This document shows, piece after piece, positions 30,926 through 45,063 of a stretch of DNA of 64,000 bases. The notes below the pieces were generated by a model. That model ran no database searches and was not told where the DNA came from. It saw only the letters and a list, made by a program, of their open reading frames with translations. Source of the DNA: Firmicutes bacterium UBA5493 (lineage in GTDB: Bacteria > Bacillota > Limnochordia > Darwinibacteriales > Darwinibacteriaceae); contig DIPH01000015.1 in the NCBI GenBank assembly GCA_002424045.1, forward strand, positions 70,550-134,549, read 5' to 3'. Made by a program: the position numbers and the translations under genes. Every line of letters starts with the position of its first letter. Positions within the stretch are counted from its first letter, which is position 1.

Positions 30926-32287
30926 TTATTGATTCCACCCGAAGGCAGTCATTATCGTGTCCACAATCTGAGCAACCTCTCCATGGCCACAGACCTTTAG
31001 ATCAGCTACAGCTTCATACAATGGTTGGCGCCGTTCAAACAACTTGCGAGTTTCCTTTACGCCTCCTTTGAGCATAGGTCGATTCGAATCGCCCCCTATG
31101 CGCTGTAAGGCCACCTCAAGGGACACGTCGAGATAAATGACCAAAGCCCCAGCCCCATGAACTGCCTCTAGAATACCCTCCTGGAGCAGTGTTCCGCCAC
31201 CTGTGGCCACGACCATCGACCCTGGACAGAGGAGCTGGTCCAGGAAAATCCGCCTCTCGAAGCTACGAAAGGTTTCTTCTCCTCGGGAGGCAAAAATCTC
31301 GGTTATGCTTTGTCCAGTTTCTTGCACGATGCGATCGTCCAAATCTACAAAGTCCAACGACATGGCTGTAGCTAAAGTCTTCCCAACATGGGTCTTTCCA
31401 CTACCCATAAAACCTGTAAGCACAAGCTTAATTGGACTATTACGGAGTACTTCCTCTGCTAGTTCTCGTCGCACCTCGTCAAGTTCATCCTTGCATGAAT
31501 CAAAGTTCACCTGGGGGTTCCAGATCTTCTGGGATGCCAGTGCCTGTTCAAAGAGCATTTGCAGGCCCCCCTTGGCCCAGAGTCCCCTGGACTTTGCCTG
31601 CAACACAAGGCGAGTTGCGCTCGGATTATATACCGTATCAAAGACAACCTGCGCCGCCTCAAGCTGTCTCTCTGTTACTGGAATACCGCCTACATGGGGC
31701 CACATCCCCACAGGTGTTCCATTCAACACGACCTCACAGTCCAAATTTCTTCCCTCATCACCCCAAACAGCATGGATGGTATGGTAATCTCTTTCCTTAA
31801 CCTCACCCACCAACGTCTCTGCCCGATGAGAGTTTCTAACTTGGATCAGGATCTCCGTAGCGCCAGCACGAACCGCTTCCATAGTCAGTACCCGAGCGAC
31901 ACCACCTGCTCCCAAAACACAAACTCTGCGCCCATGCATGGGCACCCTGCAGGCAGCAAAGGCCTCTCCGTCAGTGTTATGTCCTGTGCGCCCATGCACA
32001 GTGTTGACGGCACCATAGAGAGAAGCAGAAGGTCCCAGCTTGTCTACATAGGGTATTACAGATTCTTTATAAGGAATGGTACAGTTAAGCCCATCGAGTG
32101 CATCAAGAAGCTTAGGTAGCCTTGTGGGCAGAGATTTTGGTTCTAGCTCATAGAGTTGATACTCTCCTCGCAGACCTGCCACCTCCATAATGCGCTCATG
32201 GATGAAAGGTGAGAGACTATGCCCTAAGGGATATCCAATCAGGCCAAAACGGCGGAAAGGACCCTTCGTTTGTAAAATGTTCTTCAC
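30926..32287 (-). CDS. Bifunctional shikimate dehydrogenase (AroE) / shikimate kinase (AroK) fusion protein
   Basis: N-terminal GLIGYPLGHSLSP, NCTIPYK, GAGG Rossmann (AroE). C-terminal about 170 aa with Walker A GFMGSGKT and shikimate kinase lid (AroK). GTG start with GGGAGG ribosome-binding site. Confidence 0.8.
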   Translation of the reverse strand: MKNILQTKGPFRRFGLIGYPLGHSLSPFIHERIMEVAGLRGEYQLYELEPKSLPTRLPKLLDALDGLNCTIPYKESVIPYVDKLGPSASLYGAVNTVHGRTGHNTDGEAFAACRVPMHGRRVCVLGAGGVARVLTMEAVRAGATEILIQVRNSHRAETLVGEVKERDYHTIHAVWGDEGRNLDCEVVLNGTPVGMWPHVGGIPVTERQLEAAQVVFDTVYNPSATRLVLQAKSRGLWAKGGLQMLFEQALASQKIWNPQVNFDSCKDELDEVRRELAEEVLRNSPIKLVLTGFMGSGKTHVGKTLATAMSLDFVDLDDRIVQETGQSITEIFASRGEETFRSFERRIFLDQLLCPGSMVVATGGGTLLQEGILEAVHGAGALVIYLDVSLEVALQRIGGDSNRPMLKGGVKETRKLFERRQPLYEAVADLKVCGHGEVAQIVDTIMTAFGWNQ

Positions 32288-32407: not shown

Positions 32408-34189
32408 CTATTTTTGCGCTAGTTGTAAGAATTCTTCCACATCATCAGTAGCCAGTTTTACTGCTGCCTCCCAGAAATCCGGCTTGGTGAGATCCACCCC
32501 TAGGTGTTTCTTGGCCAGATCTTCCACGGTCATCCTGGCAGTATCTGCCAGTAGGCGTGCGTAGCTCTGGGCAAAACCCCGCCCCTCTGCTCTGGCTCTG
32601 GCGTAAACTCCCGCACTAAAGAGATAACCAAAGGTATAAGGGAAGTTGTAAAACGGTACGCCAGTTGAGTAAAAGTGTAGCTTGGATGCCCAGAAATGCG
32701 GATGGTAGACCTTTAGGCTCCCCAAGAAGGCATCCTTCTGGGCCTCCGTCATGAACTCGCTCAACTGGGCTGAGCTCACTAGACCCTTCTTTCGTGCATC
32801 GTAAAAACGGGTTTCAAAGAGGAAACGAGAGTGAATGTCCATAAAGAAGGAAACACTACGTCCGATCTTGTCCTCTAAAATGCCCAATTTCTCTTCTGGA
32901 CTGGTAGCCGCCCCTATGGCTCCATCCACCACCAGAAGCTCTCCAAAAGTGGATGCCGTTTCGGCCACGTTCATGGCGTAACGCCGCAGAAACAGGGGAG
33001 CATCCTTTAGAACATAACCATGGTAGGCGTGACCAAGCTCATGAGCAAGGGTGCCTAGGCTATCAAGGGTACCAGAGTAGGTCATGAAAACCCGGGATTC
33101 TTTGCTCAAAGGCAATGAGGTGCAAAAAGCTCCAGGACGCTTTCCTGCCCGGTTTTCCGCTTCAACCCAGCGTTTGTCTAGGGCTTTCTGGGTGAAATCA
33201 GCTATTTCGGGGCTAAACTTGCGAAATTGATCAACGACAAAGGTCTGTGCTTCGGCAAAAGGAATCTCCTTGCCCGCATCCCCCACAGGGGCCCGCAGAT
33301 CGTACCAGGCAACTTGGTCCAGACCCAAAAGCTCTGCTTTACGTTCCAAGAATTTTACTAAATGAGCTTTCCCCCCTTGCACAGCCGTCCACATCGCGTC
33401 CAATGTGGCCCGTTCCATGCGATTTCTTTGTAGGGGTTCTGAGAGCACATCATCCCAGCCGCGGTTTTTGTAAAGATTAATTCTAAAGCCCGCAAGATGG
33501 TTTAAGGTGCTAGCAAAAAGCTCGGCCTTTTCAGCCCAGGCCCTTTCGTATTTCTGGAAAACCTCTTCGCGGACTTTGGGGTCTGGGTTGGAAAGCAAAT
33601 TGGCCGCCTGCCCCATGGATAGTGTCTGAGGCCTTCCGTCTAGCTCCATATCGATAGACATCTCGCCAACAATGGTGTAATAAAGGTGGGACCAAGCATG
33701 ATAACCATCCACCTCCAAGTCGGTCACTAAGGCTTCTAACTCTGGAGACATCTTTGTCTTGGCCACATTGCGTCTTTCATTCAGGGAAAAATGGAGTTCC
33801 TTAAGCTCTTCATCGTCCAGAAATGACTGCCAATTCTTTTCAGGAATGCTCACAAAAATGTGATCGATGGCGGTAAAAACCCCGGCCAAAGATGCACTGA
33901 TTTGGCCCAGATCCCCCTGCAGCAGCTTCGCTTTGTCATCCCTTACATTCTGTGCCATGAGACAGCCCACAAAGGCACTGCACTGTCCCAGATTCATCTG
34001 CACGTCCTGCATATCATGGACAAGTGTTTTCAACTGCTCCACATCCAGATCGGCGGTGAGCGCTTCAACTTGCTCTCTTAGAGCCGATATCTTGGTACGC
34101 ACCGTCTCTATATGTTTCTGGAGCTCCTGTGAAGAACTTCCCCCCGGAAAGATGCTTTCCAAATCCCATGTTTGTTCTACGTTACTCAT
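32408..34189 (-). CDS. pepF: Oligoendopeptidase F (M3B family metallopeptidase)
   Basis: 593 aa with HEXXH zinc motif (AHELGHAYH) in M3B context. Confidence 0.85.
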   Translation of the reverse strand: MSNVEQTWDLESIFPGGSSSQELQKHIETVRTKISALREQVEALTADLDVEQLKTLVHDMQDVQMNLGQCSAFVGCLMAQNVRDDKAKLLQGDLGQISASLAGVFTAIDHIFVSIPEKNWQSFLDDEELKELHFSLNERRNVAKTKMSPELEALVTDLEVDGYHAWSHLYYTIVGEMSIDMELDGRPQTLSMGQAANLLSNPDPKVREEVFQKYERAWAEKAELFASTLNHLAGFRINLYKNRGWDDVLSEPLQRNRMERATLDAMWTAVQGGKAHLVKFLERKAELLGLDQVAWYDLRAPVGDAGKEIPFAEAQTFVVDQFRKFSPEIADFTQKALDKRWVEAENRAGKRPGAFCTSLPLSKESRVFMTYSGTLDSLGTLAHELGHAYHGYVLKDAPLFLRRYAMNVAETASTFGELLVVDGAIGAATSPEEKLGILEDKIGRSVSFFMDIHSRFLFETRFYDARKKGLVSSAQLSEFMTEAQKDAFLGSLKVYHPHFWASKLHFYSTGVPFYNFPYTFGYLFSAGVYARARAEGRGFAQSYARLLADTARMTVEDLAKKHLGVDLTKPDFWEAAVKLATDDVEEFLQLAQK

Positions 34190-34206: not shown

Positions 34207-34662
34207 CTATAAGGCCGATGGTTTGGCCAACTGAATGCTATGCTTTTCTACCGTCATGGCCATCCTATCTATTTGTTTTCCAATTCTGCCCAGACGATCG
34301 TGGAGAAGATTGTACCCATCAAAGAGGGCTCCATCGTTCTCTTCCATTGCATTTTCCAGCCTGACAATGTCCTGTCGGAGACTTGTTTCAACTCGGGAAA
34401 TCTCCTGACCGAGACTTGTTTCAACTCGGGAAATCTCCTGACCGAGACTTCTTTCAACTCGGGAAATCTCCTGACCTAGGCGGGAAATCTCCTGACCTAG
34501 GCCTAAGACCTCCTGACCGAGATGTGCTTCAACACGGCCCAGGTCTTCACGCAAACCGGTTTCCATCTGATTCATCCGGGCCTCTACCCGCTCAACATTC
34601 GTCTTAACCTGTGTGATATCGTCAGCGATTGTCTTCAGAATATCCATGATTTGATCTTGCAT
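34207..34662 (-). CDS. Coiled-coil protein with 11-residue (hendecad) tandem repeats, unknown function
   Basis: Start trimmed to MQDQIMD (ribosome-binding site GGAAGGAG). Contains repeated SLGQEISRVE(T/R) units encoded by the 33-bp DNA repeat. Confidence 0.55.
   Translation of the reverse strand: MQDQIMDILKTIADDITQVKTNVERVEARMNQMETGLREDLGRVEAHLGQEVLGLGQEISRLGQEISRVERSLGQEISRVETSLGQEISRVETSLRQDIVRLENAMEENDGALFDGYNLLHDRLGRIGKQIDRMAMTVEKHSIQLAKPSAL
34378..34523. repeat. 33-bp tandem DNA repeat (3 near-identical full copies plus 2 partial copies) inside the coiled-coil gene
   Basis: gagacttgtttcaactcgggaaatctcctgacc repeated at 34378, 34411 and 34444 (one mismatch), then truncated copies to about 34523. 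Confidence 0.9.
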
Positions 34663-34724
34663 GATACATACTCCTTCCACAGCGATCCCTGGAATTTCAG
34701 TATACCATGAAAGAGCCATAAGCC

Positions 34725-36107
34725 TCAATCGACTAAGCGAAAACGTGCCGTGAAGTGGCGCAAAATAGGAGGTTCATATTCGAAGGCGATTCCCTTAATT
34801 TCATCTCTCTGAGCGTAGACTTTAGCGATGGAATCTGCAATATAACGCATATGGTTATCTGTGTACACCCTCCTAGGAATGGTTAAGCGCAGAAGCTCGA
34901 GCTCCGACAAACCATCTTCTCCCGTATCAGGGTCACGTCCATAAAGGAGCGAACCAATCTCCACCGCCCGAATACCGCTTTCTACATACAAAGACACAGC
35001 AAAGGCATGGGCAGGATATTGCGTTTTTGGCATGTGGGGTAAGATTTTACCCACGTCCACAAATACAGCATGACCGCCTATTGGCGATTGCACCGGAATA
35101 CCAGCATCCTGCAAGCGTTTACCCAAAAGCCCTACCTGGGAAATGCGCTGGGTCAAATAATCTTCTTCTACGACTTCTTCGAGGCCTATGGCCAAAGCTT
35201 CCATGTCCCGACCGGCCAGGCCCCCATAGGTTGGAAAGCCTTCAAGTGGAACCACCATGGCTTGGCAACGTTGAAAAAGATTTATGTCTTCCCGTACAGC
35301 CAAGACGCCGCCAATATTCACTAAGCCATCCTTCTTGGCGCTCATGGTGAATGCATCGCAATAGGAGAACTGTTCCCGGACGATTTCACGAATACTCTTA
35401 TTGGCATACCCGTCTTCCCGTTCCTTAATGAAATAGGCATTTTCCGCAAAGCGCGCACTGTCCATAACAACTGGAATGTCATATTTCTTCGCCATGGCAT
35501 AGGTTGCCCTAATGTTCGCCATGGAAATCGGCTGACCACCTACACTGTTGCAGGTCACAGTAGTCACAATGGCTGCAATGGAGTCTCGGCCTTTTTCCTG
35601 AATGAACCTCTCCATTGCCTCTAGATCAAAGTTTCCTTTAAAGGGATGCTCCTTGGCTGTATCTAAGGCCTCCGCGGTGATAAAGTTCACCGCTCTTCCA
35701 CGGGCCATCTCAATATGGGCTTTCGTTGTATCAAAGTGCATATTGCCTAAGACATACTGTCCATCCCGTCTAATAAGGAGGGGGAATAAAACCTGCTCAG
35801 CTCCACGCCCTTGATGTGTAGGCATGACGTAGATATGGCCACTGAGGTTTTGAACTGTCTCTTCAAGGTGGTAAAAGTTGCGGCTACCTGCGTAGGATTC
35901 GTCCCCAAGCATCAATCCAGCCCACTGCCTATCACTCATGGCGCCTGTACCACTATCGGTGAGTAAATCGATATAGACTTCATCACTGCGTAATAAAAAC
36001 GGGTTGTAACCCGCCTTTTCTATACACCTTTGGCGTTCTTCCCGAGGTAAGAGCCTGATGGGTTCCACCATCTTAATTTTGTACGGTTCTGGTTGATAGG
36101 ATGTCAT
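34725..36107 (-). CDS. Tryptophanase / tyrosine phenol-lyase family beta-eliminating lyase
   Basis: Start trimmed to [17 protein letters not shown] (ribosome-binding site GAAGGGGAG). PLP-lysine context SMSAKKD and TnaA/Tpl-wide conservation. Confidence 0.85.
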
Positions 36108-43535: not shown

Positions 43536-43735
<200 letters not shown>

Positions 43736-43791: not shown

Positions 43792-45063
43792 ATGTTCAAG
43801 AAATCAAAGCTGTCTGTTGTCGTGTTCACGATCGTCACAGGGTTCTTGTTCGCAATGGCCGGCGCCAAAGCGAATGTCACTACCATCAATTACTGGCATT
43901 ACCTCAGTGGAGATAATGCTGCGATCCATGAACAGATGGTGCAGGAGTTTAATGCCCAACATCCCCACATCCAAGTTGAAATGCTCTACACTGGGAACCA
44001 GTTTGTAGCGAGAGACAAACTTCTAGCTTCAGTGGCGGGAAGCGTGACCCCCGATGTGGCCTTAGTGGACCAGTTTTGGCCCCCCCTCATGGTTTCCAGC
44101 GGAGCGCTGGTGCCTCTACGGGATTTTGTAGACCCCGAAGAGTATTTGCAGGACTATAGCCAGGTTTCCAGAGACACTGTAACAGTCCATGGAGAAGCTT
44201 GGACAGTTCCCTTTTCCTTAAGCAACCAGATCCTTCTTTACAATAAAGATAAGTTCAGAGAAGTGGGTCTGGATCCAGAAAAGCCTCCCACAACATGGGA
44301 TGAATTGGTGGAGTACGCCAAAGTTCTTACACGGGACATTGACGGTGACGGACGCATAGATGAATGGGGTGTAAACTTCACAACTAGAGCGAATCTAGGC
44401 TCCATGTATGCTTTTGTAACTTTCTTGTGGCAAGCGGGAGGCGAGCTGTACAGCGAAGACTACAGTGAAGCAACCTTCGACGACGCTACAGCCCGAGACA
44501 CGGTGCAGTTTTGGATTGATCTTGCACATAAGCACCAAGTGCTCTCCCTCTCTCCGCCAGCTGATGGATTTGAGATTGGCCGCATTGCGATGCAGTATTC
44601 AAGCACATCATCCATCGCTGCCACCAAGAACAAAGTGGACTTTGATTTAGGGGTAGCGGCACTACCAGGGAAGAAGAACACAGTTACAGGCGTAGGTGGC
44701 AGCAGTTTGGCCATTTTCAAGACAACGTCTGAGAAACAAGCAGCAGCCTGGGAATTTGTGAATTGGATGTCCAGTGCTGAAAACAATCTGAAGTGGAGTA
44801 TGGCCACGGGGTACATTCCCCTGAGGCTTTCAGTGCGAAAGTCCGCCACCTACCAGCAATACCTGGCAGATGAGCCCCATATGCAAATCGTACTTGAGCA
44901 GTCAGATTACGCAAGGGCCAGACCAAATACTGTAAGCTATGCAGACCTATCCCGCATTTTAGGTGTGGCAGTGGAGGAAGCACTCTACGGCAACACCAAT
45001 CCAGAACCGATTCTCAATCATGCCGTTAGAGAAGCAAACACCTATATTCAAGCCCTGGACTAA
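43792..45063 (+). CDS. Extracellular solute-binding protein, family 1 (CUT1-type ABC substrate-binding protein), orphan
   Basis: 423 aa. Signal peptide ...AMAGAKA|NV without lipobox. SBP_bac_1-like. Ribosome-binding site GGAAGGAG. No permease or ATPase genes adjacent. Confidence 0.85.
   Translation: MFKKSKLSVVVFTIVTGFLFAMAGAKANVTTINYWHYLSGDNAAIHEQMVQEFNAQHPHIQVEMLYTGNQFVARDKLLASVAGSVTPDVALVDQFWPPLMVSSGALVPLRDFVDPEEYLQDYSQVSRDTVTVHGEAWTVPFSLSNQILLYNKDKFREVGLDPEKPPTTWDELVEYAKVLTRDIDGDGRIDEWGVNFTTRANLGSMYAFVTFLWQAGGELYSEDYSEATFDDATARDTVQFWIDLAHKHQVLSLSPPADGFEIGRIAMQYSSTSSIAATKNKVDFDLGVAALPGKKNTVTGVGGSSLAIFKTTSEKQAAAWEFVNWMSSAENNLKWSMATGYIPLRLSVRKSATYQQYLADEPHMQIVLEQSDYARARPNTVSYADLSRILGVAVEEALYGNTNPEPILNHAVREANTYIQALD

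Follow-up and report, generated by a model that had tools for sequence, protein, structure and literature searches.

Can a short open reading frame (ORF) whose centre is a near-perfect tandem DNA repeat be a genuine gene, and if so, what kind of protein does the repeat build? The question is raised by a frame in a 64,000-nucleotide stretch of Firmicutes bacterium UBA5493 (contig DIPH01000015.1, positions 70,550 to 134,549), which we call the window; unless another contig is named, coordinates refer to it. The ORF occupies 34207..34662 on the minus strand (stop codon included), lies between a tryptophanase-family gene (tnaA) and a peptidase gene, and encodes 151 aa. A sequence-only reading of the stretch had proposed a coiled-coil protein made of 11-residue (hendecad) repeats whose number probably differs between strains. 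On the evidence below, we consider it likely that this is a genuine, translated accessory gene, whose product would be a small, acidic, cytoplasmic, all-alpha-helical rod of variable length with conserved end modules, a divergent member of what we call the ALFDGY family.

We characterized the array with Tandem Repeats Finder (TRF), which reported a 33-bp period at 34366-34476 (3.4 copies, 94% matches, score 194) and overlapping 21-bp periods at 34460-34518. The array is the only tandem repeat in the 64-kb window that scores 60 or more, which argues that it is not a chance feature. Three 33-bp hendecad units at 34378..34476 (minus strand), GGTCAGGAGATTTCCCGAGTTGAAA[G/C]AAGTCTC, encode GQEISRVERSL, GQEISRVETSL and GQEISRVETSL; units 2 and 3 are identical and unit 1 is one base off, just as had been described. 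The two truncated copies noticed earlier proved to be 21-bp heptad units at 34477..34518 (minus strand), GGTCAGGAGGTCTTAGGCCTA (GQEVLGL) and then GGTCAGGAGATTTCCCGCCTA (GQEISRL) in coding order. Each equals a 33-bp unit minus 12 internal bases, and both come after the 33-bp units on the plus strand, hence first in the coding direction. Units of both lengths are thus near-identical in tandem (94-100% identity) and multiples of 3 bp, the pattern of a coding variable-number tandem repeat (VNTR), and this identity at the DNA level implies recent expansion or contraction, as the sequence-only reading had held. Diverged copies of the 11-residue motif are recognizable at about residues 28-49 (34519..34581, minus strand; within ARMNQMETGLR EDLGRVEAHLG), both by segmentation and by alignment to the hendecads of another repeat protein, P0001. 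The recent copies therefore sit on top of older ones.

Is the array real? Tandem repeats can collapse in short-read metagenome assemblies, and the two contigs that carry variant arrays (L010 and L029, described below) are thinly covered, at 2.2x and 1.4x. We nevertheless regard an artefact, in the array or in its copy number, as scarcely credible. At least six contigs on record, each from a different sample or assembly, encode an identical 151-aa product. The five retrieved contigs, whose names follow two styles (NODE_ and k127_), each carry three 33-bp and two 21-bp units, and over 10-16 kb their identity to the window is 99.8-100%. The longest exact repeat within the array is 40 bp, so any k-mer of at least 41 resolves it, and 40 bp is below the usual final k-mers. 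An artefact, which the sequence-only reading had named as the finding that would undo it, is accordingly not supported. Separately, we noted a database entry of 46 aa (P0003) that is identical to residues 106-151 of the protein, comprises nothing but sequence downstream of the repeats, and starts at an internal Met; it probably reflects a contig that broke at the array in another assembly.

Copy number does differ between contigs. L010, a 1836-bp contig from a fermentation metagenome, lacks exactly one 33-bp unit, is otherwise 100% identical to the window, and would yield a 140-aa product. The absent unit is unit 1, which bears the distinguishing base; collapse of two identical units would have retained that base, so the variant is more likely real. 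In L029, a 793-bp contig of a sister lineage, the same arrangement of tnaA, small gene and peptidase gene and the same promoter block accompany a single hendecad unit. Family relatives, introduced below, vary likewise. In Desulfitobacterium hafniense, one member occurs as alleles of 118 and 91 aa; the gap of exactly 27 aa amounts to three 9-residue units, outside which the alleles share 95-96% identity, and the underlying DNA array is 27 bp x 4.9. Other allele series among the matches run 112/121/130 aa and 92/99/106 aa. An exact look-up of ten alleles constructed with 0-5 units gave no match, but it missed the known 151-aa and 140-aa alleles as well, so that this absence carries no weight. 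Together, these cases support the VNTR-like inference, including the earlier suggestion that length varies in frame between strains, both at this locus and as a trait of the family. Beside the D. hafniense member and divergent from it, we also observed a second small coiled-coil gene (L030, 3368-3712, minus strand; 114 aa, heptads NLETKVS/SIETRVG, tail HEVRLRTLNRK), which may be its distant paralogue.

We then considered what the repeat builds. Throughout the 151-aa protein, hydrophobic residues show a period of about 3.6. Their spacing is that of heptads in residues 9-37 and 50-63 and of hendecads (3-4-4) in residues 37-52 and 64-107. The 33-bp repeats encode 11-residue units with hydrophobic residues at positions a, d and h, and this 3-4-4 spacing persists over several consecutive units, in residues 64-107 and also in residues 28-49, with helix predicted throughout; about 65 of the 151 residues are in hendecad register, interleaved with heptads. 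AlphaFold2 predicts one continuous helix (pLDDT 91) that spans residues 2-145 when run without an alignment and residues 2-142 with an alignment of 26 sequences. The hendecad reading thus stands. At 0.15 nm per residue, the predicted rod would be about 21 nm long, and its apolar seam needs burying, so that it would have to oligomerize. The right-handed coiled coil proposed earlier fares less well: hendecads are present, but the array mixes them with heptads, and the rod is therefore probably nearly straight rather than clearly right-handed.

Amphipathic helices that lie on the surface of lipids or membranes, such as those of apolipoproteins, alpha-synuclein, perilipins and group-3 LEA proteins, also have eleven-residue repeats, and the sequence-only reading had raised this possibility. 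The periodicity fits, and the Apolipoprotein profile (21 bits) and apolipoprotein E in the PDB (E 0.1) both match weakly, below threshold. On the other side, only 3 of 11 positions are apolar (I, V and L at a, d and h), which makes for a narrow seam of the kind usual where helix packs on helix. With 27 D+E versus 19 K+R, the net charge is about -8; a Lys-rich interface is absent, and the 21 bits compare with a cut-off of 90. The heptads mixed into the array do not fit, and family relatives carry 7-, 9- and 14-residue repeats at the same position, so an 11-residue lipid code is not conserved. The 151-aa protein has no hydrophobic or membrane-spanning segment (the highest 19-residue Kyte-Doolittle mean is 0.34). 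We therefore consider a lipid-binding helix very unlikely.

An exhaustive phmmer search with the 151-aa protein (hereafter, the query) returned 124 proteins, and about 20 representative clusters share its last 55 residues, with matches that cover query residues 90-145. We aligned this C-terminal module in the query and 20 family representatives (alignment A2), built two full-length alignments (A3 and A4), and defined the family from A2 and A3. A2 is gapless, with the consensus DIVRxENKMDxxxKALFDGYxLxYEKLxxxExKVDxxxxxVEKxDVEIxVIK; as a motif that allows for variation, the module reads DIVRxENxMD-x3-4-ALFDG(Y/H)-...-VEK(H/Q). The module is about 55 residues long, ends in a strand-like alternating pattern, and has invariant E, L, D and G and a near-invariant R, all present in query residues 97-147 (QDIVRLENAMEENDGALFDGYNLLHDRLGRIGKQIDRMAMTVEKHSIQL; 34222..34374, minus strand). 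Full-length alignments reveal three parts: (i) an N-terminal motif, (E/D)K-h-F-x-L-h-E-K-M-Y; (ii) a variable middle; and (iii) the C-terminal module. The conserved N-terminal helix of the query, residues 1-16 (MQDQIMDILKTIADDI; 34615..34662, minus strand), aligns in A3 and A4 and matches the longer form of the family motif, M-x-D/E-K-h-F-x-L-h-E-K-M-Y, in hydrophobic pattern; MQDQIMDILKTIA is the query's counterpart of motif (i), again by hydrophobic pattern. The query is a divergent member of an uncharacterized family of small proteins. The sequence-only reading had missed that the protein belongs to a sizeable family with conserved ends.

Length in the family varies on one side: the N-side ranges from 23 to 112 residues versus 32-52 for the C-side, and the middle rod between the two motifs spans 29-157 residues. 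Clear tandem repeats are present in 24 members: ten have a period of 7 residues, six of 9, six of 11 and two of 14. At 151 aa, the query falls within the 64-163 aa of the family, has no signal peptide or membrane helix, and shares the repeat-built middle. Its closest full-length relatives, P0004, P0007 and P0033, contain hendecads of the same type in 4.7, 2.3 and 6.5 copies. A search with the A2 profile (hmmsearch) found 387 proteins, which are 64-130 aa long and belong to Keratinibaculum, 'Clostridium sp. Cult1', Tissierellia and Clostridiales; among the best 120 of the 387, every source name is 'hypothetical' or a spurious coiled-coil label. The broader, full-length A4 profile adds Desulfitobacterium hafniense, Alkaliphilus, Wukongibacter, Desulfosporosinus and Negativicutes. 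The hosts are mainly anaerobic, mostly spore-forming Bacillota, and a few members are found in clostridial prophages, within the lysogeny module. Against phrog_15901, seven relatives tested gave matches with E values of 1e-8 to 4e-4.

No Pfam or NCBIfam family scored above threshold for the query or for nine relatives tested, a PDB search with the family profile found nothing, and a genome scan with the 151-aa protein found no relative. Searching the literature for the motif strings, the PHROG identifier and hendecad or tandem-repeat terms, we found nothing relevant. Look-alikes of the query in Pfam, NCBIfam, PADLOC and the PDB (DUF1664, Apolipoprotein, ZorA tail, flagellin and fibritin) are all sub-threshold, and we judged them compositional. 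The COG-style labels that relatives carry (FlaC, YciE, 'Zn-ribbon', 'gas vesicle protein' and XhlA) are likewise coiled-coil artefacts. We also set aside P0001 and P0002, the only matches of a word-indexed protein search. They match at the level of the repeat, fall in or resemble a membrane-anchored CCDC90-like group, and are unrelated to the conserved ends by hhalign.

How did the gene come to lie between tnaA and the peptidase gene? In the species collection, the two genomes nearest to the window are L006 (peptidase gene 85% and tnaA 90% identical) and L007 (75% and 79%). Neither has an ORF between the two genes; in both, the peptidase gene follows about 50 bp after tnaA. The 3' end of tnaA in L029 is 88% identical to the window, versus 77% for L006, and the tree is (((window,L029),L006),L007). 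Given this tree and the absence from L006 and L007, a single gain before the window and L029 split is most parsimonious; two losses are possible instead. The 151-aa gene thus appears to be a lineage-specific accessory insertion, absent from the two nearest relatives, a point that the sequence-only reading lacked. Its GC content (48.5%) and GC3 are like those of the adjacent genes and thus give no compositional hint of recent transfer, and neither tblastn nor blastn found a paralogue in the window.

To assess selection, we compared the window with L029 over 67 shared C-terminal codons and obtained a nonsynonymous divergence (dN) of 0.063, a synonymous divergence (dS) of 0.193 and a ratio (omega) of 0.33. 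A two-proportion estimate against neutrality for these codons gives roughly P = 0.02. For the adjacent tnaA segment, the same comparison gives an omega of 0.03 and a dS of 0.67. The two ratios indicate that the C-terminal module is under purifying selection, weaker than that on the enzyme. The dS of the small gene (window 34207-34407 versus L029 547-750) is itself far below that of the adjacent tnaA segment (0.19 versus 0.67); later cassette exchange between lineages, constraint at the nucleotide level or small numbers could each account for this.

The frame opens with an ATG at 34662 (minus strand), and a ribosome-binding site (RBS), GGAAGGAG, can be read 8 nt 5' of it at 34671..34678 (minus strand). 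A promoter scan placed a promoter-like site, TTGAGG-18-TATACT with a TG extended -10, at 34699..34728 (minus strand). Its -35 element overlaps the tnaA stop codon, and the promoter block is kept in L029, where it reads TGGTATAAT. Similar extended -10 promoters lie 5' of family members elsewhere, which usually also have their own terminator after the gene. The peptidase ATG is 17 nt past the stop of the 151-aa ORF, with its own RBS, GGAGGAGG, directly after that stop, and on the coding strand the scan reported nothing resembling a terminator in the stretches that separate tnaA, the ORF and the peptidase gene. Transcription from the small gene into the peptidase gene is therefore likely, as far as this arrangement can tell. 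Of the earlier proposal that the gene is co-transcribed with both neighbours, the link to the peptidase gene remains plausible; the correction is that the small gene has a promoter-like site of its own, conserved in L029.

An ORF of this kind could instead be a decaying or functionless insertion, slippage-prone DNA with a chance open frame, in which changes in copy number are neutral noise. The absence from the two nearest relatives points that way, as do the loss of the start region and most repeats in L029 and the lack of a conserved genomic partner across the family members that we examined. Five observations speak for a functional gene: (i) all retrieved copies of the window lineage have an intact frame and a strong RBS; (ii) an unbroken amphipathic pattern over 145 residues is unexpected from a random frame; (iii) the C-terminal module is conserved across hundreds of proteins; (iv) dN/dS is 0.33 and not about 1; and (v) the coding deletions in L010 and L029 are both in frame. 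We therefore think a decaying or functionless insertion unlikely, and retain the reading of a genuine, length-variable member of the ALFDGY family.

Several observations nonetheless weigh against that reading. The dN/dS estimate derives from 17 substitutions and from the 793-bp, 1.4x contig L029. The L029 copy has lost its RBS and first 20 codons, including the N-terminal helix, which suggests that the 151-aa gene is dispensable, and perhaps decaying, in that lineage. At 2.2x coverage, the deletion allele of L010 could be a low-coverage assembly error. In the N-terminal motif, the query has Ala for the conserved Tyr and also Met for Phe, and its match to phrog_15901 is weak (E 1.9e-4, 23 bits). 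The window copy has no terminator of its own, unlike most relatives examined. Finally, a strict model in which the rod is an in-register ruler is not supported: a test of spacer phase between the N- and C-terminal motifs in 175 members gave a weak peak at 3.54 residues (R = 0.24) that was gone when each distinct length was counted once.

The flanking genes proved less sharply defined than the names first given to them, tryptophanase and PepF. Upstream, at 34725..36107 (minus strand), profile matches identify a pyridoxal-phosphate-dependent enzyme of the tryptophanase/tyrosine phenol-lyase family, 460 aa as called on related contigs. This beta-eliminating lyase scores above the NF009709 tryptophanase subfamily cut-off and below the equivalog cut-offs of both tryptophanase and tyrosine phenol-lyase. 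Downstream, at 32408..34189 (minus strand), lies an M3 family oligoendopeptidase that passes TIGR02290 and not the PepF equivalog. Beyond these genes come a fused shikimate dehydrogenase N-domain and shikimate kinase gene (30926-32287, minus strand) and then genes for chorismate synthase and chorismate mutase, so that a tryptophanase-family gene in the window has genes of aromatic amino-acid synthesis directly downstream. The sole Rfam match in the window is a flavin mononucleotide (FMN) riboswitch (RF00050, 121 bits) at 43536-43660 (plus strand), upstream of an ORF at 43792-45063.

We sought clues to function in the genomic settings of relatives. Across nine family members examined, no neighbour gene is conserved. 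Members lie between DNA ligase and tRNA synthetase genes, beside groES, before tgt, between gerAC and spoIIR, and upstream of genes for copper-amine-oxidase-N-domain proteins; one identical protein occurs in several contexts. The Keratinibaculum paraultunense member is beside a clustered regularly interspaced short palindromic repeat (CRISPR) array of more than 80 repeats; on its contig (L013, 1-5839), we counted 86 repeat matches (RF01315) in 6 kb, ending about 160 bp from the member. Proteins with a copper-amine-oxidase N-domain recur near members in a prophage lysogeny module and on chromosomes (L031 4744-5304 and L014-L019), which may be coincidence or a weak association. At about 5930-6400 of L014, and also in L015 and L016, the family gene has a promoter and leader (TTGAATA...TGGTATAATAAAT...GGAGG) of which a nearly unchanged copy stands past its terminator, ahead of the next gene, one for such a protein; this looks like a duplicated promoter cassette.

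One sub-group of the family does sit in prophages, where it adjoins genes for an ImmA-like protease, a repressor and a serine integrase (Clostridium tetani phages and one IMG/VR prophage). One possibility is that the family derives from phages and works in conflict between phage and host or in the control of lysogeny, for instance through superinfection exclusion or by modulating ImmA/ImmR-type induction, with repeat variation as an arms-race or contingency feature. The position of these members between repressor or ImmA-like protease genes and the integrase gene fits such a role. So do the match of the family to phrog_15901, its patchy distribution, the occurrence of the same protein in several species (P0166), and neighbours that include insertion sequence fragments or a CRISPR array. 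Against it, only 3 family loci were found in 2.9 million viral contigs, which argues that the family is mainly chromosomal, and the six phage records are three C. tetani prophages, each deposited twice. Most members, the query included, lie between ordinary housekeeping genes, PADLOC returned only sub-threshold matches of coiled-coil type, and the window has no prophage context. We thus keep a role in prophage or host conflict as a minority hypothesis, and a doubtful one. A more elaborate proposal is that the ALFDGY family is an unrecognized class of length-tunable coiled-coil adaptors, with partner-binding ends and a rod deliberately varied by slippage-prone repeats, that serves, in prophage lysogeny modules as well as on chromosomes, as a cytoplasmic contingency locus in phage-host conflict or lysogeny control, the window copy also rewiring peptidase expression through its own promoter. 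We consider this combination improbable.

The reading that we prefer, of a genuine accessory gene for a length-variable rod, suggests the following model. The gene would have entered the spacer between tnaA and the peptidase gene in an ancestor of the window and L029 lineages, bringing a putative sigma-A-type promoter that now would read through into the peptidase gene. The 151-aa protein would oligomerize into a nearly straight coiled-coil rod of about 21 nm, whose conserved ends may be the interacting parts and whose repeat middle may act as a spacer. Replication slippage or unequal recombination between 33-bp or 21-bp units would add or remove residues: a 33-bp unit corresponds to 11 residues, three turns and about 1.6 nm, and a 21-bp unit to 7 residues, two turns and about 1 nm. 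Gain or loss of a unit should therefore alter the length of the rod without breaking the helix seam.

In annotation, the 151-aa gene should be kept as real. It also leads to several hundred small proteins of anaerobic Bacillota and a few prophages, a family without a description in any curated library. The ends of these proteins are conserved, whereas the repeat-built middle differs in length even among alleles of one species. The family offers a tractable case in which to ask how tandem DNA repeats build and resize coiled coils, and whether length variation can matter for a protein off the cell surface. Cultured entry points are D. hafniense, Alkaliphilus metalliredigens, Keratinibaculum paraultunense and the C. 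tetani prophage gene phiCT9441A_02.

Among known proteins, the query is closest to its ALFDGY/phrog_15901-like relatives, for example YP_009219368.1 (Clostridium phage phiCT9441A), WP_025436989.1 (Peptoclostridium acidaminophilum) and hypothetical proteins of D. hafniense, A. metalliredigens and K. paraultunense. It has in common with them the gapless C-terminal module, the size class, the lack of a signal peptide or membrane segment, the variable repeat middle and a similar putative extended -10 promoter, and its N-terminal helix is of the same type in hydrophobic pattern. It differs in being among the longest (151 aa versus a median of 95), in having hendecads, as do P0004, P0007 and P0033, instead of the common 7- or 9-residue units, and in its divergent C-terminal tail (HSIQLAKPSAL versus HDVEIRVIKG). 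It also sits inside an operon-like gene pair and, unlike most relatives examined, has no terminator of its own.

Many other phmmer matches share only the VETSL hendecad with the query; a membrane helix is present in them, and the scores of some reach or almost reach the threshold of PF07798 (CCDC90-like/DUF1640). Membrane-anchored bacterial proteins of this group contain an almost identical hendecad (VETSLxxEIxR), which is often encoded by near-perfect repeats of 33 bp; they also have a domain at the N-terminus and a membrane helix at the C- or N-terminus, neither of which is present in the query. Its score against PF07798 is 18 bits, over residues 58-105 only, versus a gathering cut-off of 33.5, and hhalign of A3 against a CCDC90-like alignment (A6) found no relationship outside the repeat. 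We therefore treat the shared hendecad as a recurrent repeat type and not as evidence of membership. A membrane-anchored 136-aa protein of an unrelated organism (L012, 5104-5285) contains an array of 33 bp x 5.5, 97% identical and with a G+C-rich unit, that encodes VETSLGERIGG; the same hendecad has thus been amplified independently.

Haemolysin XhlA (PF10779) is another small coiled-coil protein linked to Bacillota prophages, and one family member, P0079, bears its name at NCBI. A C-terminal membrane helix is part of XhlA and absent from the 151-aa protein; relatives score 17-18 bits against a cut-off of 34.7, and the query does not match. A likeness of the query to WXG100/ESAT-6-like proteins, which are helical hairpins of about 100 aa turning at a central W-x-G, did not hold: TIGR03930 gives E 0.34 for the query, and AlphaFold2 places F-D-G-Y within the continuous helix. 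In hendecad coiled coils such as the tetrabrachion stalk and segments of trimeric autotransporter stalks, 11-residue a/d/h repeats pack in a straight or slightly right-handed manner. In the 151-aa protein, by comparison, hendecads are interleaved with heptads at an average period of 3.6, and there is no sequence relationship to these stalks. In streptococcal M proteins and similar proteins, in-frame tandem DNA repeats alter the length of an alpha-helical coiled coil between strains. Those proteins are large, secreted, wall-anchored and under immune selection, whereas the 151-aa protein is small and has no export or anchoring signal; the likeness lies in a coiled-coil length that is set by repeats.

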